Positions 13,940-60,750 of a DNA stretch of 64,000 bases are shown in pieces. Position 1 is the stretch's first letter; each line of letters begins with the position of its first letter. Under the pieces are notes generated by a model. That model did no database searches and was not told where the DNA came from. It saw only the letters and a list, made by a program, of their open reading frames with translations. The position numbers and the translations under genes were made by a program. The stretch comes from Alphaproteobacteria bacterium (GTDB taxonomy: Bacteria > Pseudomonadota > Alphaproteobacteria > UBA2966 > CAIVPW01): NCBI GenBank assembly GCA_947481575.1, contig CANKGV010000014.1, positions 2,903 through 66,902 of the forward strand. Reading direction: 5' to 3'.

Positions 13940-13944
13940 CGGTA

Positions 13945-16356: not shown

Positions 16357-16555
16357 AACCTTCCTCCCAAGGTTTGGCAGAATACCGAAGCGTTTTGGAT
16401 TCAGTGGTCCCACCAGGATGGGGCCTCCCCCATGGCGGCCCCATGAGCACAGTGGCGGGAACCGAATAAGTAAGTCAACCTACGGTCGCAGGCTCGGCGC
16501 CTTGCCGACTGTTCGCGCCTGCAACGTTAGTTTCCGTTTCCTTACAGGTGCAGCG

Positions 16556-35582: not shown

Positions 35583-36427
35583 CGCCGCACTCCGACGTAG
35601 TTGTAATAGAGGAACAGCGGCAGGATGGCGGCGGTGCCGGGCGCGGTTTCGAAGGCGCTAAAGCGGTCGAACACCGGGCGGTTCGGGAACATGCGGAAGT
35701 GCCGAATGCTCTCGCACACGACACCCGCATCTGCGAACAGGCGGCGCAAATTGGCCGCGGTAGTGACGCGCTCCACGCCGTAGGGGTGGGCACGGCCATC
35801 GTCGCCGGTGAGTTGGATCACGCGGGGCAGACCGCGGCGGATCAGCAGCTCCAGTTGCAACGCCGGGTTCCAGGCGTTGGCTTCCGAGATCACCAGGTGA
35901 CCGCCGGGAGCGAGCAGCGAGGCGATCTTACGCACGATCTGTTCGCGCGGCTCGAGATGGTGGAACGTTTGCTCCATCCAGATCAGGTCGTACTGCGCCC
36001 CGGCCGGCAGGTCGAATACCGAGGCGAACTGGAACCGGCACCGCTGGGCGTGGCCGAGCCGCTGCATCACCGCGAGACGTGCCTGCGCGCCGGCCACGCG
36101 GTCGGCGCGCAGGTCGATGCCGGTAACATCGCCACCTTGAAGCGCCAGCCACAACGATTCGGTGCCGAGGCCGCAGCCAACTTCCAGCACCCGCGCGCCG
36201 GGCTGGGCACGCAACAGGGCTTCGGCTTCGGCGATCTGGGACGCGTAGTAGCGCCGGGTGCGGCCGGTGAACGAGCGCTGGAAGCTGCCGTAGTAGTGCC
36301 GGAACGTCTCCGCGGCGGCGCCGTCCAACAGGCCGCCCTCCAACCACACCGACAGGAACGCAGCGATGTCCGGCGCGCCGGCGAGCCGGGCGGCAGCATC
36401 GGTGGGTGCGGGCACCGGCACCGTCAC
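35579..36427 (-). CDS. Class I SAM-dependent methyltransferase
   Basis: VLEVGCGLG motif I, YDLIW, TFHHL, PGGHL. Start GTG 36427 approximate. Confidence 0.85.
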   Translation of the reverse strand: MTVPVPAPTDAAARLAGAPDIAAFLSVWLEGGLLDGAAAETFRHYYGSFQRSFTGRTRRYYASQIAEAEALLRAQPGARVLEVGCGLGTESLWLALQGGDVTGIDLRADRVAGAQARLAVMQRLGHAQRCRFQFASVFDLPAGAQYDLIWMEQTFHHLEPREQIVRKIASLLAPGGHLVISEANAWNPALQLELLIRRGLPRVIQLTGDDGRAHPYGVERVTTAANLRRLFADAGVVCESIRHFRMFPNRPVFDRFSAFETAPGTAAILPLFLYYNYVGVRR

Positions 36428-41285: not shown

Positions 41286-42563
41286 CTAGCGCCGCGCTTC
41301 TAACTCCGCCAGCACAGCCGCAGCCACGCGAGCGCCCGACTTGCCGTCGGGGTTGCCGGCCCAATGGGTCAGCAGGCGAGCGCGTTCCGGCGGCAACTCC
41401 GCGGTGACGGGTTGCGGGTTGCGCACCCCGTGCAGCAAGCGGGCGTATAGGTCGTCCTCGGAGTCGGCGTGGTCGACCGCACCGGCGAGATCGAGGAAGT
41501 ACGGCGCGGTGCGTTCTTCGACCGCTTCGAAGAAGCGCGGCACGATCACGCGCTTGCCTGCCGCCATCGCTTCCAGCAACGCCGTGGTGGTGAAGCCGCA
41601 GATCACGGTGGCACCCATGATCAGATCCTGGGGATCGCCGCCGACCATGACCCGGAGGTTCGGCCCGGGGCGCAGGGCACCCTCGGCGCCGGTGAGCTTC
41701 AGCCACTTCAGCAGGTCGCCCTTGCCCTTCACGACGACGTCGATGTCGGGGTTGTCCATGGCAAGGCGGGTGACGGCACGGTGGCTGGCCGCTACGAGGC
41801 GGTTCCACGAGAGCTCGTCGAGACCTTCGCCCAAGTGCTCCAGGCGGCCTTCGGGCGCGCCCGGCTTGCGGGGCAGCGAAGGCAGGCCGGTCTTCGGATG
41901 GAACGAGAAGAACAACACGCGCGGCCGGGCGGGCTGTCCTTGCGGGCGCGCAGCAGCCGCGACCCGCCAATGGTGGATGCGGTCCAAGCGGGGCATGCCG
42001 GAAACAGTGATGCGCGATTCCGGCACGATGCCGGCGTAGAGTTGGATGTCGCGCTCGATGTTGTTGTAGACGCACACGCGCGCGCCGGGGAACGGCTGGC
42101 GGCGGGTTTCGTAGAGATAGCGGAAGAACCCATCGAGCCCGGGCGTCTTCAGCGCCTCTTTGTGCATCGCGATCACCGGCGTGCCGCTCGCCTGCACCGC
42201 CGCCGCGAACTCCTGTTCGGCGTGGTACGCGAAGTTGCCGGTGAGTACTGCCTGGGCGCGCGCAACGCGCTGCACCGGGCGCCAAGCATCCGCCCAGAAC
42301 TTGCGCAGCTCCAGCTTGGCCGCATCAAGGCTGGCGGGCGCCGACTTGTAGTTGTTGTCATCCACCCACGGCGGCAGGAATGCCGGGTACGGGGCTTTGA
42401 CGAAATCGCGGCCAAAGCCGTACAGCGCGAAGCGCGGGTCGCCGCCGAACGCGGCCAGCAGATCCTCGGTGAACCCCGCCTTCGGCAGGCCGAGCAGGCG
42501 ATAGGTTCCTGCGGACTGGTGGGCGATGGGTTCGACCATCGTGGCCATGACACGGCCCGCCAT
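41286..42563 (-). CDS. Hypothetical glycan biosynthesis protein, predicted GT-B fold
   Basis: HKEAL, VSGMPRLD, FTTTALLEAMAAGKRV resemble GT-B capsule/epimerase-like proteins. Start uncertain (42563 or a nearby Met). Confidence 0.6.
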   Translation of the reverse strand: MAGRVMATMVEPIAHQSAGTYRLLGLPKAGFTEDLLAAFGGDPRFALYGFGRDFVKAPYPAFLPPWVDDNNYKSAPASLDAAKLELRKFWADAWRPVQRVARAQAVLTGNFAYHAEQEFAAAVQASGTPVIAMHKEALKTPGLDGFFRYLYETRRQPFPGARVCVYNNIERDIQLYAGIVPESRITVSGMPRLDRIHHWRVAAAARPQGQPARPRVLFFSFHPKTGLPSLPRKPGAPEGRLEHLGEGLDELSWNRLVAASHRAVTRLAMDNPDIDVVVKGKGDLLKWLKLTGAEGALRPGPNLRVMVGGDPQDLIMGATVICGFTTTALLEAMAAGKRVIVPRFFEAVEERTAPYFLDLAGAVDHADSEDDLYARLLHGVRNPQPVTAELPPERARLLTHWAGNPDGKSGARVAAAVLAELEARR

Positions 42564-42669: not shown

Positions 42670-43329
42670 TCAAGCGTCAAGTTCGAACACCGTACGTTTG
42701 AGGAATCGGTCGCCGGTACGCCGCCAGGTGCGGCGGAAATGCCCGGCCAAGAAATCGCAGTTCCGCCCGCGGCCATCGACGATCACGCGCGTGCCCGGCG
42801 CGAGGCGGCTCTCCAAGTCGAGGACGTCCACCGCCACCTTGCGATCGGGGGTAAATTCGGGCCCGTCGAGATACACCAGTTCCGGCGCCACCGGCGGCAC
42901 GTCACGGTAGCGCCAGGCGCGGGTGCCGTCGTAGTCGACCGGAATGGCCGCACTGGCGACGATGCTGACATAAGGGCGCAGGGCCGCCGGGACATCCCGC
43001 GCCGCCACATCGGCCCACCGCGCATCGGATTCCAGGGAAACGATGCGCCCGGGCGCACCGCCATCGCGGGCGTTGTCGGCCAGCGCGCGCGCCATTACCA
43101 GCGTGGAGCACCCAGACCCGAATTCGAGCACCATGGCGGGGTGCTTGGCGCGCACCGCGGAATACAGGAACCACAGGTCGGCCCACACGGGCGGGATGGC
43201 ATCGCGGGGCCGCCCGGCGAACAAGTCTGTCAGACCGAGTTCCCGCATGCGCCGGTGCGCGCGCCAGTTTAGCACGGCGCGGCCGGCGCCCGCGTAGACA
43301 CGCGAGGCTGCGTTCCGCACAGGGTTCAT
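42670..43329 (-). CDS. Class I SAM-dependent methyltransferase (Methyltransf_24-like)
   Basis: VLEFGSGCST, IVSLESD, LVYLDGP, IVDGR. Confidence 0.78.
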   Translation of the reverse strand: MNPVRNAASRVYAGAGRAVLNWRAHRRMRELGLTDLFAGRPRDAIPPVWADLWFLYSAVRAKHPAMVLEFGSGCSTLVMARALADNARDGGAPGRIVSLESDARWADVAARDVPAALRPYVSIVASAAIPVDYDGTRAWRYRDVPPVAPELVYLDGPEFTPDRKVAVDVLDLESRLAPGTRVIVDGRGRNCDFLAGHFRRTWRRTGDRFLKRTVFELDA

Positions 43330-43338
43330 GGCACGATC

Positions 43339-44310
43339 CTAGGCGGCCGCGGCAATCTCGTTCACCTCGTTGGTGTTGATGCGCAGCAACCGGAAGCGTG
43401 ACTGCCCGGGGCGGTTCCAGCCAGTGGCGAGCGTGATACCCGCGCCGAACCCAAAGCGGCGGCAGAACCCTTCGGCGTCTTCAGGCACCGCCCAATCGCG
43501 GCCGTAGGGGTACGACACCCAATACGGATCGGTGCCGGTGAGGTCGCGGAGGAACGCGCGATTGGCGTTCACGTCGCGGTCAAGGTCTTCGCCGGACAGG
43601 CGCGAGAACGCGGTGTGGCTGTGACCGTGGGCGCCGACGACATGCCCGGCCTTGTTCAGACGGCGCAAGGCGGCGCTATCGAGATACGTGCGAGCGCAGA
43701 ACTGCGCCTCGTCAATGCCACCCACCGCAAGCAGCTCACTGGCGACGCGATCGACCACACCCTGGGGCAGCGTGAAGTTGATGCGGTATTTCAGGACCGC
43801 GTCGGCGCCGGAATCGTATGGATAGATCCGCCGCGCGGCAGCCTCGCCCTTGGCGTCGCCGCCCCTGCGCCAGATCGGCGGCAGCAGGGCATCGAACGCT
43901 GCCGGGAACTTCGGGCCCAGCGTCGCGCGCAGCCAGTGCACTTTGTGTACCGCGAGCGCCCGGCGTTCGACCGCAGGTTTGCTCGGCACGAAGAACCAGC
44001 CGCGGATCCCGGCCGGCTCCAGCACATCCGCGGCAACGCGGGCGTGTTCGGCCAGGCCGTCGTCGAACGTGAGCGCGACACTCGGGCCCGGCAGCGCATC
44101 AGCGTCCCCTTCGACAAAGGCGCGCGCCTCGGCTGGGGAAGCCATGTGGAATTGGTCGGCGAGCATGCGGACCTGCGCGGCGAACTCGGCGGGGAGCATC
44201 GGGTGAATGCCGGCAAAGCGCACCTCACCCGGATCACGCACCGAGAATTCGCCGGGCCCACGAATGTAGTGGTAGTTGACCAGCAATAGCTGGCCCGCGC
44301 GCGCACTCAT
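43339..44310 (-). CDS. Polysaccharide deacetylase (NodB/CE4) family protein
   Basis: VNYHY, LTFDDG, GAHGHSH, SYPYG. Confidence 0.88.
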   Translation of the reverse strand: MSARAGQLLLVNYHYIRGPGEFSVRDPGEVRFAGIHPMLPAEFAAQVRMLADQFHMASPAEARAFVEGDADALPGPSVALTFDDGLAEHARVAADVLEPAGIRGWFFVPSKPAVERRALAVHKVHWLRATLGPKFPAAFDALLPPIWRRGGDAKGEAAARRIYPYDSGADAVLKYRINFTLPQGVVDRVASELLAVGGIDEAQFCARTYLDSAALRRLNKAGHVVGAHGHSHTAFSRLSGEDLDRDVNANRAFLRDLTGTDPYWVSYPYGRDWAVPEDAEGFCRRFGFGAGITLATGWNRPGQSRFRLLRINTNEVNEIAAAA

Positions 44311-45185
44311 CGCAGCTTTTGCGTCCACAGGTCGATGGCGAGGGTTTCGCCAAGGACCTTCATGTACGCGGTACCGAGGCCGCGCGAGGTGATGTAAGCC
44401 CGCAGGTCATCGGCCTCGATCGAGGACAACACACCGCGGATGCCGACCCGATCGCGGTGCAGTGGCTTGGCGAGCGCTGCAAGCGTAGTGCTGTCCTTGC
44501 CAGTGGCGGCGAGGACGCGCTGGTGATCGTCGGGTTGGCCCTGGAACTGGGCGACCACCGGGTCCCACTCTTCGCCCAAGAACGCGAGCAACGGCCGCAT
44601 CACCGATTCGGGCTGCGCCACCAGCGCTTCGTAGCGGACCTCGAGGGTGTTCGCGGGGGTTACGATACCGGCGGTGCGGAACCGTTCCAGCGCGCCGAAC
44701 ACTGCCATCCAGCGATCGCCGAACGCGTCGATGGTGCCCCACTTGCCGGCCTGCCGCAGCGACACGAAGGTATCGCGCGGATCGCGCACGACGTGCACCA
44801 ATTTCGCATTCGGCCAGCGCGCAAAGATGCGGTCGGCGACGGTAGCGTTGCCGGGCGTCTTTTCGGCCCAGCGGCGCTTGCCGACGCGGGGAGTGTGGGC
44901 GGCCATGAACAGGTCGAGGAACTCTTCGGCACTGCGGCGCCCGGCCATGGCGGCTGCGGCCGCGGGGTCCTCGCCGTAGAACCCGGCCAACTGCGCCACA
45001 AGGGACTCGATGGATGCGCCGCCGTGTCCGGTGCCGGTGGCAAAATCCAACTCAAACCAGTTGGTTTCCAGACCGCTGGCAATTGCCGGGTGCTGACCCA
45101 ACATCGCCCGCACCAGACTGGTTCCGGACTTGAACATCCCGCCGATGAAGATCGGATCGGTCGATGCGGGAGCGGGCGCGTTCAT
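44307..45185 (-). CDS. Sulfotransferase family protein
   Basis: 5'-PSB loop IGGMFKSGTSL, WAEKTP, 3'-PB VRDPRDTFVS, RYEALV..PE. Confidence 0.88.
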   Translation of the reverse strand: MNAPAPASTDPIFIGGMFKSGTSLVRAMLGQHPAIASGLETNWFELDFATGTGHGGASIESLVAQLAGFYGEDPAAAAAMAGRRSAEEFLDLFMAAHTPRVGKRRWAEKTPGNATVADRIFARWPNAKLVHVVRDPRDTFVSLRQAGKWGTIDAFGDRWMAVFGALERFRTAGIVTPANTLEVRYEALVAQPESVMRPLLAFLGEEWDPVVAQFQGQPDDHQRVLAATGKDSTTLAALAKPLHRDRVGIRGVLSSIEADDLRAYITSRGLGTAYMKVLGETLAIDLWTQKLR

Positions 45186-46081
45186 CGTTTTACCCGGGCC
45201 AGGACCAAACCAACGCCCATCGCGAGCTTGGTCGGCATGTTCGCTATCACCAGTTCCGGCTCCATTCCGTAGGCGGCAAGGTCGGCGATCGAAGCGGCAA
45301 AGTACTCCTTGCCGACGATCAGCGCGCGGCGGGCACCATCGGCGTTCCAGTCGCGGAACGGCTCAACCATGGCAACATGCCCAGACGAGACCCGGGCGAC
45401 CTCGGCGAGCGCGCGAGCCCGGATCGATTCGACCTGCTCCAACGCCAATGCGGTAAACACCAAGTCGAACGAGGCGTCGGCGAACGGCATCTTGGCCGCG
45501 TCCGCTTCCACCCACTCAATGGCGCGGACGGCGTCGGGCGCGGTGAGCGGCTCAGGCGCGAACTCGAACAGCGCCGGCGGCAGCGGTGCGGCGCAGGCCG
45601 CGCGCGCGGCGGCGACACCGGCGGCGGTGAGTTCGAGGCCGGTGAAGTGAATCTCGGGGAAGCGTGGCGCCAATGCCAGCAGGTTGAAGCCGACACCGGA
45701 GCCAACTTCGAGAACCCGGCGCGGACGCAGCGCGGCGATCACCCGCATCAGCGCGAGCAAATGGATGCGCTTGGTCGCCATGTCGCCGGCCAAGAACGTG
45801 CGGTTGCCCCAAACCAGCGGCACCGCATCGCCCTTGGGGCGCAGGCGGTTGGCGAGGTCGTATTCGGGCCAGATAGTCTTGTCGTATTCGTTGCGCACTT
45901 GGGTGGTGGCCCGGCGGAACCCGAGCAGGGCGCGCCAGCCCCGCTTGCGCTTTTGCCGCCCGGCCTTCGCATCCAACAGGCGCACCTGTTCACGCCAACG
46001 GTCGCCGGTGGGGGGCAGTTCTTCGTGGACCCACGGCGTCAGTAGGCGCTCGATCTCGGCGTCGGGCAAAACGAGTTCCAT
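45182..46081 (-). CDS. Class I SAM-dependent methyltransferase
   Basis: VLEVGSGVG, TGLEL, EADAAKMPFADASFDLVFT, LEQ, EP. Confidence 0.85.
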   Translation of the reverse strand: MELVLPDAEIERLLTPWVHEELPPTGDRWREQVRLLDAKAGRQKRKRGWRALLGFRRATTQVRNEYDKTIWPEYDLANRLRPKGDAVPLVWGNRTFLAGDMATKRIHLLALMRVIAALRPRRVLEVGSGVGFNLLALAPRFPEIHFTGLELTAAGVAAARAACAAPLPPALFEFAPEPLTAPDAVRAIEWVEADAAKMPFADASFDLVFTALALEQVESIRARALAEVARVSSGHVAMVEPFRDWNADGARRALIVGKEYFAASIADLAAYGMEPELVIANMPTKLAMGVGLVLARVKR

Positions 46082-46084
46082 CGG

Positions 46085-46807
46085 CTAGGCCCGGCCCGCG
46101 GATTCGCGCCGCAGCAGGAACTCCGCCAGTTCCAGTTCGAACGGCTCGTCGATGTTGACCACGTGACGATCGATCACGACGGCGGCGCAGTCCTCTTCCA
46201 GAATGTGGCCGCGGTCCACCAGAGCCGCGCGGGTCAACGCGTAGCACAATCCGTTGCGGTGAAAGTAGCTGGGGATCGACTGCCGCAGACTGTGCCGCGC
46301 GCCTTCCGCCAGATAGAAGCCGATCACGCCTTCCGGGCTAACGGTCAGGGTCTTGTGGGGCGTGAAGTGGGCAGGGGTGCGGCTCACGGTGGCGGCCGCC
46401 AAATGACCACCATCGACCACGGCCGCAACCGTGCGCTCCACGTCTTCCGGGCGGCGCAGGGGGCTGGTGGGTTCGAGCAGCACCGAAATGTCGAAGCGGC
46501 GCTGGTAGTGTTCCTCGGCGGAGAGCCACGCGTGTTTCCACATGGCCGCCGAGCCCGCGGTGTCGCCCGAGTGCTCGGGCGGCCGGGTGAACGGAGCATC
46601 GAGACCGTGGGCTACCGCTTCGGCCATGATCTCGTCGGAGTCGGTGGAGATCAGGCCCTCATCGATCCACGGCAAGGCGGCGACGACGGCCGCGGCGCGC
46701 GCAACCAGGCTTAGCCCGCCGACCAGGGCGAGGTTCTTGCGCGGGATCGACTTCGACCCGCCGCGTGCCGGCACGACCGCCAATACTGAGCGTCCCTTGA
46801 AGCTCAC
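46085..46807 (-). CDS. neuA: Acylneuraminate (nonulosonate) cytidylyltransferase
   Basis: VVPARGGSKSIPRKN, ISTDSDEI, PFTRP, LEPTSPLR, RNG..Y, NIDEPFE. Confidence 0.92.
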   Translation of the reverse strand: MSFKGRSVLAVVPARGGSKSIPRKNLALVGGLSLVARAAAVVAALPWIDEGLISTDSDEIMAEAVAHGLDAPFTRPPEHSGDTAGSAAMWKHAWLSAEEHYQRRFDISVLLEPTSPLRRPEDVERTVAAVVDGGHLAAATVSRTPAHFTPHKTLTVSPEGVIGFYLAEGARHSLRQSIPSYFHRNGLCYALTRAALVDRGHILEEDCAAVVIDRHVVNIDEPFELELAEFLLRRESAGRA

Positions 46808-47823
46808 CCTGCCCTCGCTTTGGTCAGGCGCACGGTGCGGCCCTCGGCGCTACTCGTGCGGGCGGCTTCGAGGACACGCAGCACGGCGGTGCCGTCGGCC
46901 AGCGTGCAACTCGCTTTGCGCTTGCCGGCGGCCACGCGCAGGAATTCCTGCGCCACCGCGATGAACATATCGTTGCGCCCGCACGTGTAGTTGGTTTCCT
47001 GCCACGGACCCGCGGCGTCGTGGGCGACCGACACGCGGTTGGGATCGGCCGTCCACAGGATCGTGCCCTGGTCGCCGCTGAAGCGGATGGTCTTGTCGTG
47101 CGGGCGGCCGTAGAGGTCGAGGTGCAGGCTGATGCGCAGGCCGTTGTCGTAGCCGAGCAGCATGTCGACGTTGTCGTCGGTCTCGATTTCCAGGTCGCTG
47201 ATCTTTTCCACCCGGGCGGTAACCGAGGTGGGGCTGCCGAAGAACATCAGCGCCAGATCGACCCAGTGGCTTTCGTCGAGCAACGCGCCGCCGCCTTGTT
47301 CACGGCTTGCCATGAAGAAGTCTTGGTAACGCTCCCACGGATGCCAATCGGCGAGGTGCGCCGACATGACGAAGCGCACGTGGCGCACCGTGCCGATGGT
47401 CTTGGCCGCCAGCAAACGCTTCACGTCGGCGATCGGTGGCCACCACCGCCACGTGTAGCCGAGCAGGACCGGCGCGCTGGCGGTGCGGGCGGCGCGCTCC
47501 AGCTTGCGGCAGGATTCAAGATCGGGCGACACCGGCTTTTCCAGCAACACGGGCAGGCCCGCCTTCAGCGCCAGCAGGGCTTGGTCCACATGGACCCGCG
47601 GCGGCGAGGCGATCACCACCGCGGTGAGCGATCGGCGGTCGACGTGGAACGCTTCCTCGACGGTCTCGTAGCAGCCAACGACGGCCACCTCGGACGAGGC
47701 TTCGCGTAGCCGGTCCGCGCGCGGGTCGACGGCGGAGATGGTGCACCCCAACGCGGCAAGGTTGCGGGCGTGGCGGCGGCCCACCGACCCGGCGCCGACG
47801 ATGAGAACGTGCGGAGTAGCCAT
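46804..47823 (-). CDS. Gfo/Idh/MocA family oxidoreductase
   Basis: GAGSVGRRH, IASPP..H, LLEKP, GGGALLDESHWVD. Confidence 0.9.
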   Translation of the reverse strand: MATPHVLIVGAGSVGRRHARNLAALGCTISAVDPRADRLREASSEVAVVGCYETVEEAFHVDRRSLTAVVIASPPRVHVDQALLALKAGLPVLLEKPVSPDLESCRKLERAARTASAPVLLGYTWRWWPPIADVKRLLAAKTIGTVRHVRFVMSAHLADWHPWERYQDFFMASREQGGGALLDESHWVDLALMFFGSPTSVTARVEKISDLEIETDDNVDMLLGYDNGLRISLHLDLYGRPHDKTIRFSGDQGTILWTADPNRVSVAHDAAGPWQETNYTCGRNDMFIAVAQEFLRVAAGKRKASCTLADGTAVLRVLEAARTSSAEGRTVRLTKARAG

Positions 47824-47825
47824 CG

Positions 47826-49349
47826 CTAGCGGATCCCCAGAACCATGTCTTGGTACGCCATGGGGTCGAACGGCACTTCGATGTAGGCGGGGCCGGCGTG
47901 CCAATCCCATTGGCCGAGTGCATCGTTGAAGCCGCGGGCGGAGTCCGCACGCATCGCCGGAATCTTCATGGAGGCGAGGATATCGCCCCACGACGGCTGG
48001 TCCATCAGCAGCGGCTTCTGCGTGAGGCCATCCTTCATCGCCTTGGTGCGCACGGAGCCGAAGCCGCCGTCGGTGAGCAGCACCACGAGCAGTGGCAGGC
48101 GCTTTTGCACCGCAAGGCGGAGTTCGCCGACGTGGGTGCCGATGCCGCCGTCGCCCAGGAACACGACGGTGGGCACGTCGCGATCGTGCAACGCAGCGCC
48201 GAGGGCCATGGGAATGCCGGTGCCCATGTAGCGGCCCTGGCCCGACATCAGGCACCAATCGGCGCGGCGCGCGCGCCACGCGTGCTCGGCGATGGTGCAG
48301 AAGTAGCCGGTATCGAATACCGCGCGGACGCGGCCGCGGAAGTGACGGTCTACGGTTTCATAGACGTAGGCCGGCAGGAATGGCCCGCCGAGCATGGCGA
48401 CGCGCAGCGTGCCTGTGGCGAGCTGGACTTCCGTAAGCCCCCATTCCTTGCCCGACAGCGCGGCGAACACGTTGGCCGCATCGGCGGTGTTGGTCGCCGC
48501 GGCAAAGCCAAACGCGGGCGACGACGGCAGCGTGTCGATGTTGACGGACGGCGCCTTGAACGGCTTGGTCGCCAGCACCTCACTCGGGCGCAAGCCGAGG
48601 CACACGACGAGATCGGCAGCGGCGACGATCTTTGTCTCGGGCACGCGCTCAAGGCCGACGCCGGTGTAAACGCCCGCGGCCTGCGGCAGGGTTTCATCGA
48701 GCACGCCCTTGGCGGATGCGGTGGTGAACACCGGCACCTGCAGGGCAGCGAGGTACGGACCCCAGCCTTGGCGGATGGCAAGGGTGCCAGCGATCACCAC
48801 CGGGCGCTGGGCCCTCGCAATGACATCGGCGACGCGCGGCTCGCTGGGTGCGAACTGCGGCACGGGCATCGCCGTTTCGCCGCCGATCAGTTCGACCACG
48901 ACGGGGCCCGGCGCTTCGGCGGCAGCAAAACCAGCGATGGCCCCGGCATCCGGATTGGCACCGACCGACAGGCGCGCCTTGGCGACTGCGCGGATCAGGG
49001 ACTCTTGATCCATGCCTTTGTGGCGCACACGCCAGTCGCTGTTGGCTGGGTGCGCTTCCACGCCAGCGACCAACGGGAGCCCTTCGAACCAACAGGCGGC
49101 GAGGCCCGGCACCATGTTGGCGAGACCCGGTCCCTTGATCGCCAGCGCCAGGCCCGGAATGCCTGACTGACGGCCGATGGTGCCGGCCATCAGCGCGGCA
49201 GCGCCTTCGAAGTAGGTCGTGTGAAATTCGACGCCACGCTTTTCCAGCGCATCGACGATTTCGAGCGTAGGCCCGCTACCGGGCACACCGAAAGCATGGC
49301 GCAACCCGGTGGCGGCGAGGCCGTCGGCGAGGGCGACGAGAGCACTCAC
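47826..49349 (-). CDS. Thiamine diphosphate-dependent enzyme (acetolactate synthase-like fold)
   Basis: FGVPGSG, E..AA.MA, GPGLANM, MGTGIPMALGA, GDGG. Start GTG 49349. Confidence 0.88.
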   Translation of the reverse strand: MSALVALADGLAATGLRHAFGVPGSGPTLEIVDALEKRGVEFHTTYFEGAAALMAGTIGRQSGIPGLALAIKGPGLANMVPGLAACWFEGLPLVAGVEAHPANSDWRVRHKGMDQESLIRAVAKARLSVGANPDAGAIAGFAAAEAPGPVVVELIGGETAMPVPQFAPSEPRVADVIARAQRPVVIAGTLAIRQGWGPYLAALQVPVFTTASAKGVLDETLPQAAGVYTGVGLERVPETKIVAAADLVVCLGLRPSEVLATKPFKAPSVNIDTLPSSPAFGFAAATNTADAANVFAALSGKEWGLTEVQLATGTLRVAMLGGPFLPAYVYETVDRHFRGRVRAVFDTGYFCTIAEHAWRARRADWCLMSGQGRYMGTGIPMALGAALHDRDVPTVVFLGDGGIGTHVGELRLAVQKRLPLLVVLLTDGGFGSVRTKAMKDGLTQKPLLMDQPSWGDILASMKIPAMRADSARGFNDALGQWDWHAGPAYIEVPFDPMAYQDMVLGIR

Positions 49350-50287
49350 AGCTGCAATTGCTCCAGGATCTTTTCCGCGGCGCGGCGGCACACCAGCTTC
49401 ACCGCATCGGGACTGAACCCGCCCATGTGTGGCGTGATCAGCAGGTTATCGTGGGTGCGGGCGTAGGCCACGAGCGGGTGGGCATCGATCGCGGGTTCGC
49501 CTTCCAGCACGTCGAGCCCTGCGCCGCCGAGCCGGCCCGAGGTAAGGGCGGCCAGCAGCGCGGCCTCGTCCACCACCGCACCGCGGGAGGTGTTGAGCAG
49601 CACCGCACCCGGCTTAACACCGGCGAGCAATGGGGCAGAGACGAGCCCGCGCGTTTCGTCGGTCAGATGCACATGGACCGAAATGAAGTCGCTGGTGCGG
49701 AATAGTTCCGGCAGGTCGACACGGCGAATGGCCTCGGGCCACTTCGCTTGGTGCGGGTCGTAACCGACTACGTTCATGCCGAATGCCTGCGCATAGCGGG
49801 CCATCCACCCGCCGATGCGGCCGACGCCAACGACGCCTAGTTGGCGGCCATTGAGCATGATGCCGGGGAAGTCTTCGCGGACCCAGCGGCCCGACTTCAC
49901 GTGGTCCAGCGCCGACGGCAGCTTGCGCGCGCAGGCCATCAGCAGCGCCCAGGTGAGCTCGGCGGCGGGCGTGAGGTTGGCCAGCAGGCCGGGATCTTCG
50001 CGCAAGGTCCGTACCGGAATGCCGCGCTTGGCAAGCTCGCCGCGGGCGATGTGATCGGAACCGGTGGTCGCGCAACTGATGATGCGGAGATTGGGCGCCG
50101 CCGCGATCATGGCATCGGTAACCGGCGTGCGCATCGACGCATCGAGCAGCCCGGCGGCGGTCTTCAGCGCGGCACCCACCGCGTCCGGGGTGGGATCAAC
50201 GTTGACGGCCTCGGCCTTGGCGCCCACAGCCTCGCGCAACGCGGCGAAGCCTTCGGGAGCGCCGAGATAAGCAATAATCGGTTTCAT
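49346..50287 (-). CDS. D-isomer-specific 2-hydroxyacid dehydrogenase (SerA-like, no ACT domain)
   Basis: TGSDHI, AELTW.L, GVVGVGRIG, YDP, LNTSRG.VVDE, LDV..EP, TPHMGG. Confidence 0.9.
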   Translation of the reverse strand: MKPIIAYLGAPEGFAALREAVGAKAEAVNVDPTPDAVGAALKTAAGLLDASMRTPVTDAMIAAAPNLRIISCATTGSDHIARGELAKRGIPVRTLREDPGLLANLTPAAELTWALLMACARKLPSALDHVKSGRWVREDFPGIMLNGRQLGVVGVGRIGGWMARYAQAFGMNVVGYDPHQAKWPEAIRRVDLPELFRTSDFISVHVHLTDETRGLVSAPLLAGVKPGAVLLNTSRGAVVDEAALLAALTSGRLGGAGLDVLEGEPAIDAHPLVAYARTHDNLLITPHMGGFSPDAVKLVCRRAAEKILEQLQL

Positions 50288-51216
50288 GCTTTCACCAGAA
50301 CTGCGTAGAGGCGGTCGGCCAGGCCGCGCAACTCGAGCGAGCGGCGCCACGCCGCATCGAGGGCGGGATCGTGGAGGGCGGGCAACGGGGTGAACCCGGA
50401 CGGACGGCCTTCGCGCACCCAGGTGAACGCGTTGGCCAGGCCGTAGCGCTGCACGTAGAGCACGGCGCCGACGCGCAGGCCCGCAGCGGCGGCGCACTTG
50501 CCCAACGCCTTCCCGTCGAAGTACCAGCGGTGCGCGGCACGATAGAAGAAGCGCGGGTAGTCCGGCGCGAGTTCCATCATCGCGTCATCCCGGTTGGGCG
50601 TAGACACCAAGACGCAGCCCTTCGGCGCCAGCAGCGCGGCGGTATCGGCCAGCAGCGCGCGCGGATCGGGCACGTGTTCGATCACGTTGAAGCAGAATGC
50701 GATGTCGACGCGGCCCAGATAGGCCTGTGCGTCGCCCGCAAAGGGAAACACGGCGTAGCCGCGAGCGGCCAGGCCGGGCTGGAGCGCTTGGGCGGGCTCG
50801 ATGGCGACAATTGCTTTCGGCGTGGCGGGGCGGCCGGTGAGCTGATCGAGAAAGCCGCCGGCGCCACAGCCGATTTCGGCCACCGTGGCGCCGGACACGC
50901 GCTCGGACCACGTTGCGTACAGCGTCGGGTCAGCGAACATCTCGTGGGAGTTCGAGAACCCAGAGGTGTCGGACCCCGCTACCGACTGCCAATATTCCGG
51001 ACCCGCGTAGAAGTCTTCGCCGCGGCACGAGGCCTCGGCGAGGCGGTCCACGCCGCAACCGCCGCAGTGCGACACAACCGTGTCGCCGGTGAGATTGCCG
51101 AACGCGCCATCCCGTACCGGGCCGGCGTAACGCTCGGTCCACTTGGATGCGCCGCACACCTCGCACGGGGCGAACGCCGCATGGTCGTCCGCCGTGGCTG
51201 CGGGTTTGGCGTTCAC
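50284..51216 (-). CDS. Class I SAM-dependent methyltransferase with an N-terminal zinc-ribbon
   Basis: CEVC...CGGC, EIGCGAGGF, NVIEHVPDP, STPN, H..YF. Confidence 0.85.
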   Translation of the reverse strand: MNAKPAATADDHAAFAPCEVCGASKWTERYAGPVRDGAFGNLTGDTVVSHCGGCGVDRLAEASCRGEDFYAGPEYWQSVAGSDTSGFSNSHEMFADPTLYATWSERVSGATVAEIGCGAGGFLDQLTGRPATPKAIVAIEPAQALQPGLAARGYAVFPFAGDAQAYLGRVDIAFCFNVIEHVPDPRALLADTAALLAPKGCVLVSTPNRDDAMMELAPDYPRFFYRAAHRWYFDGKALGKCAAAAGLRVGAVLYVQRYGLANAFTWVREGRPSGFTPLPALHDPALDAAWRRSLELRGLADRLYAVLVKA

Positions 51217-52382
51217 GTGTAGGACAGGCGCTTCTGGATGCGGAACTTGGCGGTCGCCAGATGGTCGGCGATGCGCACGCCGGCGTTGCCGTCGCCGAAC
51301 AGGTGCGACGACGGATAGCGGCCGTGAGCGATCTGCGAACGGATGGCAGCGGCAATCTCCGCCGCGTGGTAGCCGACGGTGACCAGATTGGGCCCGTGTT
51401 CGCGGCCCTGCTGGCGGCTGCCGACATTCACTGTAGGTACGCCGAGGTACGCGCCCTCGCGCAGGCCCGACGACGAATTGCCGACAACACACGCGGCGCT
51501 GTTGATCAGGCGCGCGTAATCCTCGGGCCCGAAGTTCCGGTACATGTGCAGCCAGTCGGGGTTGTGGCGCTCGCGGTACATGCGCAAGCCCTTGGACACA
51601 TCATCGGACCCAGCATCGACATTCGGCCACAACCATGCGGTTTGCATCTTGAGGCTGGCGACTGCCTGCAGGGTTTCATTCACCTGCGCGAAGCCCTGGC
51701 CGTATTCGGTGGTCACCGGGTGCTGCAGCACCACAAGGTACGGCTTACTCGGATCGAGATCGGCGCCGACCCCGCGGTAGCGCGAGAAGATATCGGGCGG
51801 CAGGGTGAGATCGGTTTCCGCGACCAGATCGATGGCCGGGCAGCCGGTGAAGTGCACCGTGTCCGGGTTCTCGCCCATGCGCACCAAGAAATCGGCGGCG
51901 CGGAGCGTCGCGGGGAAATGGATGTGCGCGAGCTTGGTGACCGCGTGGCGCACGCTTTCGTCGATATTGCCGGTGACTTCGCCACCCTGGGTGTGGGCGA
52001 GCGCGATGTTCATGTAGCTGGCGGCGACGGCAGTCGCCATGGTCTCAAAGCGGTCGGCGACGGTGACCACGACATCAGGCTTCAGGTTCTCGAACTGGGT
52101 CGCGAGTTCCAGGATGGCGAGGCCAGTGGACTTGGCCATGGTCGTCGGCGTTTCGCCTTCCACGATCGAATGTACCGTTGCCATCGCACGGAAGCCGTCG
52201 GCGGCGATGCTTTCCTGAACGTTGCCGAACCGCGCCAGCAAAGCGCTGGCACCCACAATCAGTTGCAGTTCCAGGCGCGGATGATTCTTGACCGCGCGCA
52301 TGACGGATTTGATGCGGCCGTAGTTGGCGCGGCTGTTGACCACAACGCACACCTTGCGGCGCTGGGACACGGACTGCGTCAT
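51213..52382 (-). CDS. neuC: UDP-N-acetylglucosamine 2-epimerase (hydrolysing), NeuC family
   Basis: SRANYG, DRFE, HTQGGE..GNIDESVRHAVTKLAHIHF, LQHPVT, PNVDAG, GNSSSG.RE, NVGSRQ.GRE. Confidence 0.93.
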   Translation of the reverse strand: MTQSVSQRRKVCVVVNSRANYGRIKSVMRAVKNHPRLELQLIVGASALLARFGNVQESIAADGFRAMATVHSIVEGETPTTMAKSTGLAILELATQFENLKPDVVVTVADRFETMATAVAASYMNIALAHTQGGEVTGNIDESVRHAVTKLAHIHFPATLRAADFLVRMGENPDTVHFTGCPAIDLVAETDLTLPPDIFSRYRGVGADLDPSKPYLVVLQHPVTTEYGQGFAQVNETLQAVASLKMQTAWLWPNVDAGSDDVSKGLRMYRERHNPDWLHMYRNFGPEDYARLINSAACVVGNSSSGLREGAYLGVPTVNVGSRQQGREHGPNLVTVGYHAAEIAAAIRSQIAHGRYPSSHLFGDGNAGVRIADHLATAKFRIQKRLSYT

Positions 52383-53431
52383 TCCAGGTCCTCCGGCCAC
52401 AACAGACGATCGGATGCGACATCGCAGGCCAAACGCCGTCCGATCAAGCGCGGCAGTTCAGCGGCAGCGATTCCCGTGCCAGGCTTCTTGGTGGTGAGCA
52501 TCTCTGCAGTCAACGTAGTTCCCTTGGGCTGCGCCCGTACCAGGGCGACGCTCTTATTGAAGAGCGCCCGCATGGGTGCCAATTCTTTGGCCGCCGCGTC
52601 CTTGTCGACCGGATTGGCATCCAACAGCGCGAACGCATCGATCGCCTCGCGCAGCAAGCGGAACTGCGGCGGAGTGAGCGACACGGCGACATCCGGCCCG
52701 AACATGCGGCGATCGAGAGCAAAATGGACTTCGACCAGATCGACCCCACGGGCGATGGAAGCTAGGGCTGGGTACAGACTACCCGAATGATCGGATAGCC
52801 CCACCGGGCAGCCGAACCTGTAGCGCAGTTCGCCGATCACGTTGAGGCCGACGTGCTCCAGGCCAGTGGGGTACTTGCTGGTGCACTGGAATAAGGCCAA
52901 CGGGGACCTTGCCTGGCGCACCAGCGCGACCGTATTGCCGATGTCGGCGTAGCTGCTCATGCCGGTACTGAGCAGCACCGGCCCGCCGGCGGCGGCCATG
53001 GCGCGGATCAGGTCGTGGCTGCCGACCTCGCCCGATCCGACCTTCCACGCGGCCATGCCGACCTGCCGGAGCATTTCCACGGCGGCGACGGAAAACGCCG
53101 ACGAGAGGAACGCGATGCCCTTGTCGTGCGCGTGCTTAGCCAGCCCTGCCCACTGATCGGCGGTGAACTCCATGCGGCGCCAATAGGCGTAGCGTGTGTC
53201 GTCCTGCTGGCTGAATTTGACGCGGAACTGCTCATCCAGCGTCGACTCGGCGGCGGCGATGTGAGTCTGGAACTTCACCGCATCGGCGCCAGCGTTGGCC
53301 GCTTCTTCCACGAACGCGTGAGCGAGGCCAAGGGAGCCATCGTGATTTTGCGCTACTTCAGCGATCAGGAATGCCGGGCGCCCGGGACCGATTTCGCGCG
53401 TGCCGATGCGAATGGTGGCGGGGCCGGTCAT
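52379..53431 (-). CDS. neuB: N-acetylneuraminate/nonulosonate synthase with C-terminal SAF domain
   Basis: IAEVAQNHDG, ADAVKFQTH, KVGSGE, LSTGMS, CTSKYP, GLSDHS, EVHF, GPD, KKPGTGI. Confidence 0.94.
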   Translation of the reverse strand: MTGPATIRIGTREIGPGRPAFLIAEVAQNHDGSLGLAHAFVEEAANAGADAVKFQTHIAAAESTLDEQFRVKFSQQDDTRYAYWRRMEFTADQWAGLAKHAHDKGIAFLSSAFSVAAVEMLRQVGMAAWKVGSGEVGSHDLIRAMAAAGGPVLLSTGMSSYADIGNTVALVRQARSPLALFQCTSKYPTGLEHVGLNVIGELRYRFGCPVGLSDHSGSLYPALASIARGVDLVEVHFALDRRMFGPDVAVSLTPPQFRLLREAIDAFALLDANPVDKDAAAKELAPMRALFNKSVALVRAQPKGTTLTAEMLTTKKPGTGIAAAELPRLIGRRLACDVASDRLLWPEDLE

Positions 53432-55194
53432 TCGGCCACTCCGGCGAGCGGCACACCCGGATCCGCCAAGCTGACGCGGCGCGCACCATCGGCGCCGATC
53501 CGGTACACGACGTCGGCCTTGGCAACCGCGGACGCGCGGTGCGCAATGACCAATACCGTGGCGTTGCCCGACAGGCGCGCGATGGCATCGCGCACCAAAG
53601 TTTCGGAAGCGCCGTCCAGGGCACTGGTGGCTTCGTCGAACACGTACAGGTCGGGCCGGCAAAGTACCGCACGGGCGATGGCGACCCGCTGGCGTTCGCC
53701 GCCGGACAGCGACTTGCCGCGATCACCGATCGGCGTGTCGTACCCTTGGGGCAACCCGCGAATAAACGCATCGGCATTGGCGATGCGCGCCGCCTCGACG
53801 ACGTCTGCTTCCGGCGCATCGGGACGGCCGAAGCGAATGTTGTCGCGCACACTGGCGTTGAAGATCACAGGGTGCTGGCTGACGTAGCCAACGTGCCGCC
53901 GCAGCGATGCCACGTTGTATTCGGCGATATCGGCGGAACCGTACCGGATGGTGCCCGCCTGCGGTGTCAGCAGCGCCAGCAGCAAGTCGGCGACGGTGGA
54001 CTTGCCCGCGCCGGAGGAACCGATCAACGCAGTGGTTTTGCCGCGCGGGATCACCAGATTCAGGCCGCTGAATACGTCGTGACCCGGCACATAGGCGAAC
54101 CGCACGCCGCGCAGTTCGATGTCGCCGTCGAGGCCGGTGAACTCGCGGCCCGCGGTGAGCGGTTCCGGGTCCGGCGCCTGGACCAACAGGTCGTGCACCA
54201 GGTCGAACGACGGCAGGTACGCGGCGATCTTCATACGTCCGGCGATCAGGAAGTTCACGTTCACCAACAGGCGTTGCGCGAGCATCAGAAAGAACACCAA
54301 CGGGGCGATGTAGTCGCCCGGATCGACACCCATCACCCGCTTGGCGACGATCAGCGTTGCGCCAAGCAGAAACACCACGAGGAAGTCGGTGGACTGCACG
54401 GGGACTTCCTTGATCGCGCGAAACCACGTTTCGGCGACGGTGTGGCGGCGCAGGCGTTCCACCACCTCGGCACGGATGCGGCGATAGGCGTTGTACAGCT
54501 TCACTTCGGTCGCACCGGCAATCGCCTCGGTGACGATCGCCGAAACCTCCTGGTGCAACTGGATGTGCAGCTTGCCGTTCTTGATCGAATAGCGAAGCGT
54601 GGGACGCCGCGCCGCATAGAACAGCAGCGCACCGAGCGCGCCGACCGCCAGCGTGGTCTGGTAGTTGGCCGTGAGCAGCACCGCCACCAGCACAACCGAC
54701 ATCAGGGAGCGGTTGGCAAAATCGAGCAGCACGGTCATGCCGCGAGCGGCACGGTAGGTTTCGACCGTGACGTTGTGGACAATGGTGCCCTGCTTGTCGT
54801 GGGCGATGGTGTCGCGCGGCGCCGCCAAATAGTGATCCAGGATCGACGCACACCAGTCATCGCGCAGCAGCAGCGCAAAATAGTCCGACAGGGCGTTGGT
54901 CAGGACCAGCACCGCGCCTTTGAGAAAGAAGATGCCGATCAACGCAACCAGGAGTGTTTCCAGCTCCCAGCCGTGCGGCAGGTGGGAGGTGAGCAACGCC
55001 GCGTACGCGGCGAGTTTGCCGGTGCCTTGGGCGCCATCGCCGATCAGGCCGTACACAATCGGCAACACGAGCGAGATACCGAAGCTCTCCATGGCCGCCG
55101 CTGCCAACATGAGCCCGAACAGGCCGATGGTCAGCCGGCGGCGCTTGCCGATCAGGCGGTCGAAGATTCGGAAGCGTGCCGACCAGGACGCCAC
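53428..55194 (-). CDS. ABC transporter, fused permease/ATPase (MsbA/PglK-type, probable lipid-linked glycan flippase)
   Basis: N-terminal TM domain, Walker A GSSGAGKST, signature LSGGERQR, DEATSALD, IAHR. Located at the head of the glycan operon. Confidence 0.88.
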   Translation of the reverse strand: MASWSARFRIFDRLIGKRRRLTIGLFGLMLAAAAMESFGISLVLPIVYGLIGDGAQGTGKLAAYAALLTSHLPHGWELETLLVALIGIFFLKGAVLVLTNALSDYFALLLRDDWCASILDHYLAAPRDTIAHDKQGTIVHNVTVETYRAARGMTVLLDFANRSLMSVVLVAVLLTANYQTTLAVGALGALLFYAARRPTLRYSIKNGKLHIQLHQEVSAIVTEAIAGATEVKLYNAYRRIRAEVVERLRRHTVAETWFRAIKEVPVQSTDFLVVFLLGATLIVAKRVMGVDPGDYIAPLVFFLMLAQRLLVNVNFLIAGRMKIAAYLPSFDLVHDLLVQAPDPEPLTAGREFTGLDGDIELRGVRFAYVPGHDVFSGLNLVIPRGKTTALIGSSGAGKSTVADLLLALLTPQAGTIRYGSADIAEYNVASLRRHVGYVSQHPVIFNASVRDNIRFGRPDAPEADVVEAARIANADAFIRGLPQGYDTPIGDRGKSLSGGERQRVAIARAVLCRPDLYVFDEATSALDGASETLVRDAIARLSGNATVLVIAHRASAVAKADVVYRIGADGARRVSLADPGVPLAGVAE

Positions 55195-55201
55195 GGTCCG
55201 G

Positions 55202-55714
55202 CTACTCGGCGCGCGCCAGCGCGTCGGCGGCGACGCGCACCGGCGTCTGCCGTCCGAGCAGATCGAGCAGAATGATCACTCGCTCGCGGTCGAGGCGGCG
55301 CTGGAACAGGCCGACGCTATCCAACAACGCGCCCTCGGCGATGCGGACACGGTCGCCGCGCTGGTAGCGGGACGAAGCACCCTTACGGTCATCGAGATCG
55401 ATCAGGCCGCCCTCGCCTTCCCGCGCCTGCAGCTCGGCGATGACGCGATCCGGCACGGGTGTGGGGCCCGATCCGAAACCGACCAGGGCGCTCACGCCAC
55501 GGGCGAAACTGATCGCCCGGGCACCGGTGACGCTGAGGTCGGCACGGACGAACAAGTAGCGCGGGAACAGCGGCGCTGGGCCGACGACGAGACCGCGTGC
55601 ATGGCGCCGGCGCTTATTGTAGAGGGGCAGATAGACCTCGAGCCCGCGCTCCCACAGGTTGGTGCGCGCCCACAACTCGCCTTCCGGCTTGGTGAAAACG
55701 CAGTACCAGCGCAT
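55202..55714 (-). CDS. NusG-family transcription antiterminator paralog (RfaH/UpxY-like)
   Basis: WYCVFTKP..E, YLP, PLFPRYLFV NGN domain, TRGV-like ARGVSALV, KOW GDRVRI.EG. TGATG overlap with the upstream regulator. Confidence 0.88.
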   Translation of the reverse strand: MRWYCVFTKPEGELWARTNLWERGLEVYLPLYNKRRRHARGLVVGPAPLFPRYLFVRADLSVTGARAISFARGVSALVGFGSGPTPVPDRVIAELQAREGEGGLIDLDDRKGASSRYQRGDRVRIAEGALLDSVGLFQRRLDRERVIILLDLLGRQTPVRVAADALARAE

Positions 55715-60658: not shown

Positions 60659-60750
60659 CCCCGCCGGCCTAGGGCGGGTCTTGCGCCGCCCCCGAATCTT
60701 GCTACGTTTCGCCTCTTCCGACCCCCTCCAGCCCTGCCTAAGGACACTCC

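Follow-up and report, generated by a model that had tools for sequence, protein, structure and literature searches.

The seven-gene cassette at positions 46085 to 53431 of the 64,000-nucleotide stretch of alphaproteobacterial contig CANKGV010000014.1 (hereinafter the window) is a real, widespread, and apparently uncharacterized variant of nonulosonate biosynthesis, with its own clades of NeuB, NeuA, and transferases. Between its neuC and neuA genes lie a methyltransferase and a trio comprising a 2-hydroxyacid dehydrogenase (HADH), a thiamine diphosphate (ThDP)-dependent enzyme, and a Gfo/Idh/MocA oxidoreductase (Gfo). A distinct and undescribed nonulosonate is probably made. With roughly even confidence, we propose that the block is a self-contained, horizontally spread pathway to a CMP-activated nonulosonic acid that is neither N-acetylneuraminic acid (Neu5Ac) nor legionaminic (Leg) or pseudaminic (Pse) acid, and that it ends up on a surface glycan of the lipopolysaccharide (LPS)/O-antigen type. 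The further suggestion that the trio performs a carboligation is a tentative one, to which we give well under even confidence. Nonulosonic acids shape the recognition of microbes by hosts, phages, and other microbes, and to our knowledge pathways have been worked out for only a handful of their backbones (Neu, Kdn, Leg, Pse, and their epimers); the cassette would extend this set by a further backbone or else by a novel type of modification.

The cassette and its distribution

All coordinates refer to the whole window, in which the G+C content is ~67%, and the cassette interval is bounded exactly by the stop codon of neuA and the start codon of neuB. In order of transcription, its genes are the following.

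52379-53431, minus strand: neuB (PF03102 plus SAF), of a distinct clade
51213-52382, minus strand: neuC, hydrolyzing UDP-GlcNAc 2-epimerase (TIGR03568, 373 bits against a cutoff of 236)
50284-51216, minus strand: MT1, S-adenosylmethionine (SAM)-dependent methyltransferase (Cys-rich N terminus plus Methyltransf_23), an optional cassette member
49346-50287, minus strand: HADH, D-isomer 2-hydroxyacid dehydrogenase (2-Hacid_dh_C, 187 bits), core
47826-49349, minus strand: ThDP enzyme, acetolactate synthase (ALS)-like, 507 aa (all three of the TPP_enzyme N, M, and C domains), core
46804-47823, minus strand: Gfo, Gfo/Idh/MocA NAD(P) oxidoreductase (Gfo/Idh/MocA domains; IolG-like over its full length), core
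46085-46807, minus strand: neuA-like CMP-nonulosonate synthetase (CTP_transf_3, PF02348), of a distinct clade

A sequence-only reading of this DNA had placed four enzymes between neuC and neuA, in a run of genes that overlap by 4 nt or nearly abut, and both statements are upheld, the first by family matches at the positions given above. Overlaps of 4 nt (ATGA/GTGA) are found at the ABC/neuB, neuB/neuC, neuC/MT1, MT1/HADH, HADH/ThDP, and Gfo/neuA junctions, that of HADH and ThDP presupposing a GTG start for the latter at 49349, while ThDP and Gfo are separated by 2 nt and neuA and the methyltransferase gene that follows it (MT2) by 3 nt. The coupling extends upstream to a fused ABC exporter and downstream via MT2, a sulfotransferase, and a deacetylase, such that 8 of the 12 junctions between an RfaH-like gene and X41, a candidate transferase gene, are 4-nt overlaps. 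The N terminus of MT1 has a CxxC...CxxC pattern that, judged by eye, might be a zinc ribbon. Pfam scans of nearly all sizeable open reading frames (ORFs) of the window yielded no DegT aminotransferase, hexapeptide acetyltransferase, or PtmE-type enzyme, in agreement with the earlier reading, and no RNA genes emerged when the window was scanned with Rfam and for tRNAs.

Full-length relatives of the ThDP protein number in the hundreds, at 45-70% identity. With each species represented by one genome, a scan gave 143 relatives, from which 80 loci were inspected and the 49 with enough flanking sequence were counted. HADH is present in every one of these loci, NeuA in 46, Gfo in 45, NeuC in 34, and NeuB in 31, usually in the gene order seen in the window, and the tightest unit is HADH-ThDP-Gfo-NeuA. 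The methyltransferase, which had been counted among the inserted genes, is indeed present here but stands outside this universal core: whereas some methyltransferase occurs in 39 of the 49 loci, one between NeuC and HADH is seen in only 20. An ABC exporter accompanies the block in 25 loci, and a deacetylase and a sulfotransferase in 24 each.

Altogether, HADH-ThDP-Gfo-NeuA, mostly following NeuB-NeuC, is found in about 50 genomes that represent at least 10 phyla, the hosts being an archaeon of the genus Methanoregula and bacteria belonging to Alphaproteobacteria, Desulfobacterota, Acidobacteriota, Gemmatimonadota, Nitrospira, Rokubacteria, Methylomirabilota, Marinimicrobia, and Omnitrophota. 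The search for cluster co-occurrence that the earlier reading had called for thus finds a block that recurs across phyla, an arrangement beyond chance. The archaeal proteins are 43-62% identical to those of the window, which points to horizontal transfer, and their genes lie directly after a complete Pse set (PseB, PseC, PseF, PseG/H, and PseI). The cassette is common in lineages of environmental or wastewater type, such as Nitrospira, Desulfobacterota, Acidobacteriota, and marine Alphaproteobacteria; for communities of this kind, there are reports of sulfated glycoconjugates and of “sialic acids” that were left unidentified. Nearly all hosts are metagenome-assembled genomes (MAGs), and the protein clusters comprised MAGs only, with no cultured host among them. 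One cultured and fully sequenced organism bearing the whole block, Pseudorhodoplanes sinuspersici (CP021112.1), was reached through Cap36, a second candidate transferase. Its genes, at around 3.636-3.646 Mb, run NeuB-NeuC-MT-HADH-ThDP-Gfo-NeuA-sulfotransferase-deacetylase-X41-like and adjoin LPS core genes, and this organism makes the question of the product directly testable.

NeuC, NeuB, and NeuA

The NeuC protein scores above the cutoff of the model for hydrolyzing UDP-GlcNAc 2-epimerases, and its best match in the PDB is the epimerase domain of human GNE (251 bits, against 200 bits for LegG). NeuB, in contrast, reaches 281.5 bits with the NeuB_NnaB equivalog TIGR03569, short of the cutoff of 399.65, and 204 bits with the PseI equivalog, whose cutoff is 340; its best PDB match is the Neisseria meningitidis enzyme (NmNeuB; 183 bits), with PseI at 129. 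The QTHI and GPD segments from which a likeness to the Neu5Ac synthases of Neisseria and Campylobacter had been read are both present, and NmNeuB is the nearest PDB match, but the likeness does not extend to three of its residues (Arg314, Phe288, and Asn74) or to the equivalog score. In the window protein these positions hold Lys, Leu, and Gln, respectively. An alignment of all NeuB-like ORFs of the inspected loci with NmNeuB, comprising about 45 cassette copies and six non-cassette paralogues, shows Lys in place of Arg314 and L/M/I/T in place of Phe288 in all of the cassette copies, together with S/T at Asn184 and a variable residue at Asn74. The catalytic, PEP (phosphoenolpyruvate)-binding, and metal-binding residues are kept in every one of them, and Arg314 is kept in all six of the paralogues from the same loci. 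In a phylogeny, likewise proposed with the earlier reading, the cassette NeuBs form one monophyletic clade, to which neither NmNeuB nor the PseI-like proteins belong. A 2013 paper reportedly holds, to go by its title, that “Arg314 is essential for catalysis.” In NeuB, Arg314 binds the N-acetyl carbonyl of a substrate analogue and is reported to be completely conserved among bacterial NeuS enzymes, Phe288 lines a hydrophobic pocket, and Asn74 binds the C6-OH (PMC11339185).

Comparable changes are seen in NeuA, which, in the numbering of NmCSS, bears Q104E, D209N, F192I, F193L, and R173H in the window. Among the cassette NeuAs, Q104E occurs in every one of 65 copies and D209N in every one of 64, Phe192 and Phe193 are replaced by aliphatic I/L/M, and Arg173 is mostly His, while the CTP-binding residues are retained; the canonical NeuA paralogues encoded in the same loci keep Gln104 and Asp209. 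The top NCBIfam match of the window protein is PseF, far under its cutoff. In the Neisseria enzyme, the N-acetyl methyl group sits in a pocket made by Tyr179, Phe192, and Phe193, Mg is liganded by Asp209, whose replacement by Ala inactivates the enzyme, and Gln104 has been proposed to contact N5 and O8, its change to Glu cutting kcat 800- to 20,000-fold (PMC2901514). The two versions also coexist in a single locus of a Marinimicrobia single-cell genome (L071, 2345-19829), with three NeuB-like, two NeuC, and two NeuA genes, in which a cassette set (Lys314 and Glu104/Asn209) stands beside a canonical one (Arg314, Phe288, Gln104, and Asp209).

Judged by their sequences, NeuB and NeuA both depart from the canonical enzymes around the region that handles the C5 N-acyl group. 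These changes at substrate-contact positions argue for a product other than Neu5Ac and suggest that at least part of the sugar remodeling takes place upstream of the NeuB step. The earlier idea of a modified Neu-type backbone is thereby supported in part: NeuC and NeuB lie nearest to Neu-type enzymes, which speaks against a Leg or Pse pathway, and the altered contacts speak against unmodified Neu5Ac. Set against the Neu5Ac pathway (N. meningitidis SiaA/SiaC/SiaB and Escherichia coli K1), the cassette uses the same three enzyme families, with a NeuC that passes its equivalog model, a NeuB with intact metal, PEP, and catalytic residues, and a NeuA with an intact CTP site, and it likewise needs no 4,6-dehydratase or aminotransferase. 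It differs in the conserved addition of HADH, ThDP, and Gfo, in the loss of Arg314, Phe288, and Asn74 from a NeuB that scores below the equivalog cutoff, in the Q104E, D209N, and aliphatic N-acetyl pocket of NeuA, and in its coexistence with a canonical set in L071. The Leg and Pse pathways are more distant, in that no 4,6-dehydratase, DegT aminotransferase, or N-acetyltransferase is encoded within 46085-53431 or in the conserved block. In practical terms, NeuB Lys314 together with NeuA Glu104/Asn209 offers a simple genome marker for the cassette, which would also add particular clades of NeuB, NeuA, and transferases that are at present annotated together with sialic acid genes.

In one locus (L012, 479-2510, minus strand), the cassette is preceded by a second, divergent set that is encoded on the other strand and comprises an Arg314-type NeuB-like protein, a protein resembling HADH (~200 bits), and part of a NeuA-like protein. 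On account of this set, it is possible that 2-hydroxyacid dehydrogenases partner nonulosonate synthases more widely.

The inserted enzymes and the likely product

None of NeuB, HADH, ThDP, Gfo, or NeuA reached an NCBIfam equivalog, and the automatic annotations of the inserted genes (acetolactate synthase and similar) are of the housekeeping kind. HADH is distantly related to D-3-phosphoglycerate dehydrogenase (PGDH) and retains the catalytic Arg/Glu/His. It scores 205 bits against the PGDH cutoff of 454, and the loops that bear Arg54 and Arg75 in PHGDH are replaced by the family-invariant DASM[KR] and CATTGSDHI; we therefore reject it as a true phosphoglycerate dehydrogenase. The ThDP enzyme similarly falls far below the ALS equivalogs (137.7 bits at best, against a cutoff of 509) and has intact cofactor motifs, namely an activating Glu48 that is invariant in the family and a GDGG...TDGG diphosphate-binding motif. 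Its AlphaFold model (pLDDT 89.5) adopts an AlsS-like fold that gives no indication of the substrate, and the top Foldseek matches are the FAD-independent catabolic ALS followed by HACL, BAL, CEAS, and AHAS. By both sequence and structure, then, its relatives are carboligases and lyases (AlsS, HACL, BAL, and CEAS) rather than PDC-type decarboxylases; they include C-C lyases such as BAL, HACL, and cyclohexanedione hydrolase. Gfo resembles inositol 2-dehydrogenase (IolG) along its full length; a role as a sialic acid 4-oxidoreductase of the NanOx/YjhC type was considered and discarded, the matches (34 and 28 bits) ranking under those to inositol dehydrogenases and NAD-dependent glycosidases.

What we observed is which genes are present, how widely they are conserved, and which residues mark the NeuB and NeuA clades; from these we infer every chemical step, above all the role and order of the trio. 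To go by homology only, NeuC would convert UDP-GlcNAc to free N-acetylmannosamine (ManNAc). HADH, ThDP, and Gfo would remodel the sugar before or around the NeuB step. Here, Gfo might oxidize a sugar hydroxyl to a carbonyl, while HADH might oxidize a D-2-hydroxy acid, yielding an unusual 2-keto acid (e.g., hydroxypyruvate from D-glycerate), which the ThDP enzyme might decarboxylate, joining the resulting acyl-anion unit to the sugar carbonyl to give a C-branched or chain-extended skeleton. The variant NeuB would then condense the aldose with PEP, the variant NeuA would form the CMP-sugar, and Cap36 and X41 would transfer it, with the methyltransferases, the deacetylase/sulfotransferase pair, and an MBOAT protein tailoring it and the ABC protein exporting it. 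This would be the first ThDP-dependent C-C bond-forming step in nonulosonate biosynthesis, and its product a C-branched or more-than-nine-carbon relative of sialic acid, possibly methylated and N- or O-sulfated, displayed on many uncultured bacteria and a methanogen and spread horizontally; we offer this as a possibility that is distinctly less than probable. Two extensions at C1 of ManNAc failed as thought experiments, the one-carbon version placing the acetamido group on C6, which is needed for the pyranose ring oxygen, and the two-carbon version giving a ketose that NeuB cannot use. The sequence-only reading had alternatively envisaged a branched sugar made from the 4-keto product of CapD. 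CapD next to a GT4 transferase is the usual priming-sugar pair, and that origin is unlikely, for here the CapD gene lies 14 kb away beside the priming GT4, outside the conserved block.

Just outside the glycan locus, a class V aminotransferase gene (Aminotran_5; 60742-61932, plus strand) was observed. If it encodes a serine-glyoxylate/serine-pyruvate aminotransferase, its product would yield hydroxypyruvate, a candidate donor for the ThDP enzyme, though the proximity is probably a coincidence.

Two other systems offer parallels. YerE and YerF belong to the pathway for the branched-chain sugar yersiniose A in Yersinia pseudotuberculosis, where YerE acts on a CDP-3,6-dideoxy-4-keto-hexose furnished by a dehydratase. 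As in the cassette, an ALS-like ThDP enzyme is combined with sugar oxidoreductases in a glycan cluster, and the proposed logic is alike, namely that a keto sugar and a keto-acid-derived acyl anion give a C-branch that is then reduced. The proposed analogy is a functional one, and in contrast to the Yersinia system the cassette has no dehydratase, the partner of its ThDP enzyme is a D-2-hydroxyacid dehydrogenase, and its end product would be CMP-activated. The flagellin-modification operon sfmABCDE of Shewanella oneidensis, which is needed for a nonulosonate-containing glycan, encodes a NeuB-domain protein together with an IlvB-like ThDP enzyme, and along with these two a reductase and a SAM methyltransferase (PMC3765264). 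It differs in that its NeuB protein has 290 aa, its ThDP enzyme 581 aa, and its reductase belongs to the SDR family, in that it has no NeuC, NeuA, HADH, or Gfo, and in that it adds a moiety of 236-264 Da onto a separate nonulosonate of 274 Da (PMC3765264). The sfm operon is the only published cluster that we found to combine NeuB-like and ThDP enzymes, and as such is a loose precedent. Otherwise, the searchable literature yielded no published description of the cassette and no characterized pathway that matches this conserved unit, which bears out the earlier expectation of an undescribed pathway.

Several observations weigh against the proposal of a dedicated pathway to a new nonulosonic acid. 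In about one-third of the loci HADH-ThDP-Gfo-NeuA occurs without NeuB or NeuC within the available flank, a NeuB-less cluster is seen in GCA_018667855.1, for example, and a marine Rhodospirillaceae contig has a glycan cluster of ~39 kb without either; because the NeuA of such loci keeps the same cassette signature, we assume that NeuB and NeuC are located elsewhere in these genomes. In Litoribacillus peritrichatus JCM 17551 (L073, 8998-12549), the only other cultured organism found, HADH-ThDP-Gfo stands alone with no neu gene, its neighbors being an IS1595-family transposase and genes for an ankyrin-repeat protein and for a protein of 1176 aa without a family match. In another locus (L074, 7622-20915), a gene of the UDP-glucose/GDP-mannose dehydrogenase family (a UDP-sugar 6-dehydrogenase) directly precedes the trio; on the other side of the trio lie genes for a methyltransferase and an RfaH-like protein, a full Pse set (PseB, PseC, PseG/H, and PseI), and a Cap36-like gene. 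Because of these two cases, the trio may be a separable module. Further, the Q104E/D209N pair of NeuA may merely reflect a compensated rearrangement of the Mg site, and the alignment at Asn74 of NeuB, which falls in a loop region, is less certain. Finally, D-2-hydroxyacid dehydrogenases normally need a carboxylate substrate, a need that fits the supply of a donor and equally a small-molecule route apart from the sugar skeleton.

These points lead to the alternative that ordinary CMP-Neu5Ac is made and that HADH, ThDP, and Gfo form a separate module for a non-sugar substituent or for another sugar of the same glycan. The route would proceed from a 2-hydroxy acid via a 2-keto acid to an aldehyde or acyloin and on to an alcohol or acid, providing, for instance, a glycolyl, glyceroyl, or hydroxyalkyl unit. 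It would account for the trio without NeuB and NeuC (L047 plus L087, L022, and L062), without any neu gene in Litoribacillus, and beside the 6-dehydrogenase and the Pse cluster in L074, and HADH followed by a ThDP enzyme is the sequence that textbooks give for small keto acids. Nonulosonates with an N-glyceroyl and possibly an N-glycolyl group also exist, with their genetics unexplained, and the account of those of Tannerella mentions no dehydrogenase or ThDP gene (PMC5378307). However, this alternative leaves aside the substrate-contact changes that are invariant in cassette NeuB and NeuA and not seen in the neighboring canonical paralogues, the conserved core encodes no acyltransferase, ligase, or carrier protein, and the trio is lodged between neuC and neuA, translationally coupled, in dozens of genomes across phyla. 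We accordingly regard a separate module as unlikely, if a serious contender.

It is also conceivable, at a still lower level of probability, that the trio shortens or cleaves the sugar. In one such route, the sugar would be oxidized to a keto or keto-acid terminus, and decarboxylation or acyloin cleavage by the ThDP enzyme would then lead to a truncated sialic acid analogue of 7 or 8 carbons. The C-C lyases BAL, HACL, and cyclohexanedione hydrolase among the ThDP relatives, the 6-dehydrogenase gene right before HADH in L074, whose product would create a 2-hydroxy-acid terminus, and the lack of conservation in the NeuB clade at Asn74, the contact of the ManNAc C6-OH, are all in keeping with such a scheme. 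Against this, the 6-dehydrogenase is absent from the window and most loci, four-electron oxidations are rare for Gfo enzymes, and we know of no precedent.

A known Leg or Pse cluster drawing on the CapD dehydratase of the same locus is effectively refuted: a CapD/PglF-like gene is indeed present (30288-32813, minus strand) and NeuA has PseF as its top, if far sub-cutoff, NCBIfam match, but the aminotransferase, N-acetyltransferase, and PtmE are absent from the window and from the conserved block of the 49 loci, NeuC is nearer to GNE than to LegG and NeuB nearer to NmNeuB than to PseI, and Methanoregula has a full Pse set besides the cassette. That the inserted genes are ilvB-, serA-, and iolG-like housekeeping paralogues placed there by chance, as their automatic annotations might imply, is refuted by the same order in about 50 genomes of at least 10 phyla and one archaeon, by the 4-nt overlaps, and by scores that all fall far under the housekeeping equivalog cutoffs.

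The surrounding glycan locus

The cassette is embedded in a glycan locus of ~26 kb (~30.3-56.4 kb), of which the further genes are the following.

55202..55714, minus strand: RfaH/NusG-like antiterminator at the operon head (PF02357; TIGR01955, 111 bits, below cutoff; 10 loci)
53428..55194, minus strand: fused ABC exporter, MsbA/PglK/HepA-like, translationally coupled to neuB
45182..46081, minus strand: MT2, class I SAM methyltransferase
44307..45185, minus strand: sulfotransferase (PF13469, 118 bits)
43339..44310, minus strand: CE4 polysaccharide deacetylase (PF01522)
42670..43329, minus strand: MT3, Methyltransf_24 methyltransferase (23 of 49 loci)
41286..42560, minus strand: X41, candidate nonulosonate transferase, start uncertain (weak match to NF046086, the BFO_1060 family; 15 of 49 loci)
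40292-41281, plus strand: protein without a family match
39362-40276, plus strand: exported protein
37858-39354, plus strand: MBOAT O-acyltransferase, assigned from its sequence and its homologues in L018, L029, and L054
36424..37794, minus strand: Cap36, candidate nonulosonate transferase (TIGR04396, “surface carbohydrate biosynthesis protein”; 19 of 49 loci)
30288..36423, minus strand: CapD/PglF-like dehydratase, GT4 priming transferase, Wzy_C/ligase-like protein, GT1, and methyltransferase (boundaries approximate)

Cap36 and X41 are probably the transferases for the new sugar, to judge from their motifs and distant family matches. Cap36 scores 366.5 bits with TIGR04396 (cutoff 125) and also matches weakly the BFO_1060 family, which takes its name from a candidate nonulosonate transferase of Tannerella forsythia; the CEEG and RPHPSE motifs that are invariant in its family correspond to the D/E-D/E-G and HP motifs of sialyltransferases, and its model is GT-B-like (pLDDT 90). 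X41, the weaker relative of the two, has the HP motif. Neither protein has a Pfam domain or a sequence match in the PDB. Both thus recall the nonulosonate transferases of Tannerella forsythia (Tanf_01245/BFO_1060; PMC5420450), Cap36 through both motifs and X41 through the HP motif, but the similarity is very distant.

The tailoring set of the locus consists of three to four methyltransferases, the sulfotransferase and deacetylase pair, and the MBOAT protein encoded on the opposite strand. The pair (43339-45185) is always adjacent and translationally coupled, both in the window and in about 20 related loci; in L038 and L081 the deacetylase is found inside the core cassette, and in Methanoregula (L083, 14281-16972) it is followed instead by proteins with only faint or weak Pfam matches to FemAB and Formyl_trans_C. 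The constant adjacency of a deacetylase and a sulfotransferase downstream of the cassette resembles the N-deacetylase/N-sulfotransferase logic of heparan-type systems, with the difference that here they are separate CE4 and Sulfotransfer_3 proteins.

Some additional features of this and the related loci were noted. The RfaH/NusG-like gene and a winged-helix regulator together head the operon (55202-56409, minus strand), on whose strand no ops-like element for RfaH was found. Adjoining the sulfotransferase of an Acidobacteriota cassette locus (L002, 14448-16712) is a gene for a 754-aa fusion of pyruvate kinase, PUA_2, and ATP sulfurylase. An AsnB-like glutamine amidotransferase (~637-700 aa) recurs in the glycan clusters that contain the cassette (L086/L087, L022, L062, and L002); from its family, this suggests amidation of a glycan carboxylate. 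Beside the locus in the window, and divergent from it, is a gene (56552-58729, plus strand) for a 725-aa protein in which a peptidoglycan-binding domain and a domain of the trypsin-like protease type accompany some nine Sel1 repeats. Elsewhere in the window, a stretch of lower G+C content (0.62-0.65) encodes a 633-aa pentapeptide-repeat protein and a PQQ-type dehydrogenase (12452-14353 and 14578-16413, respectively, both on the minus strand).

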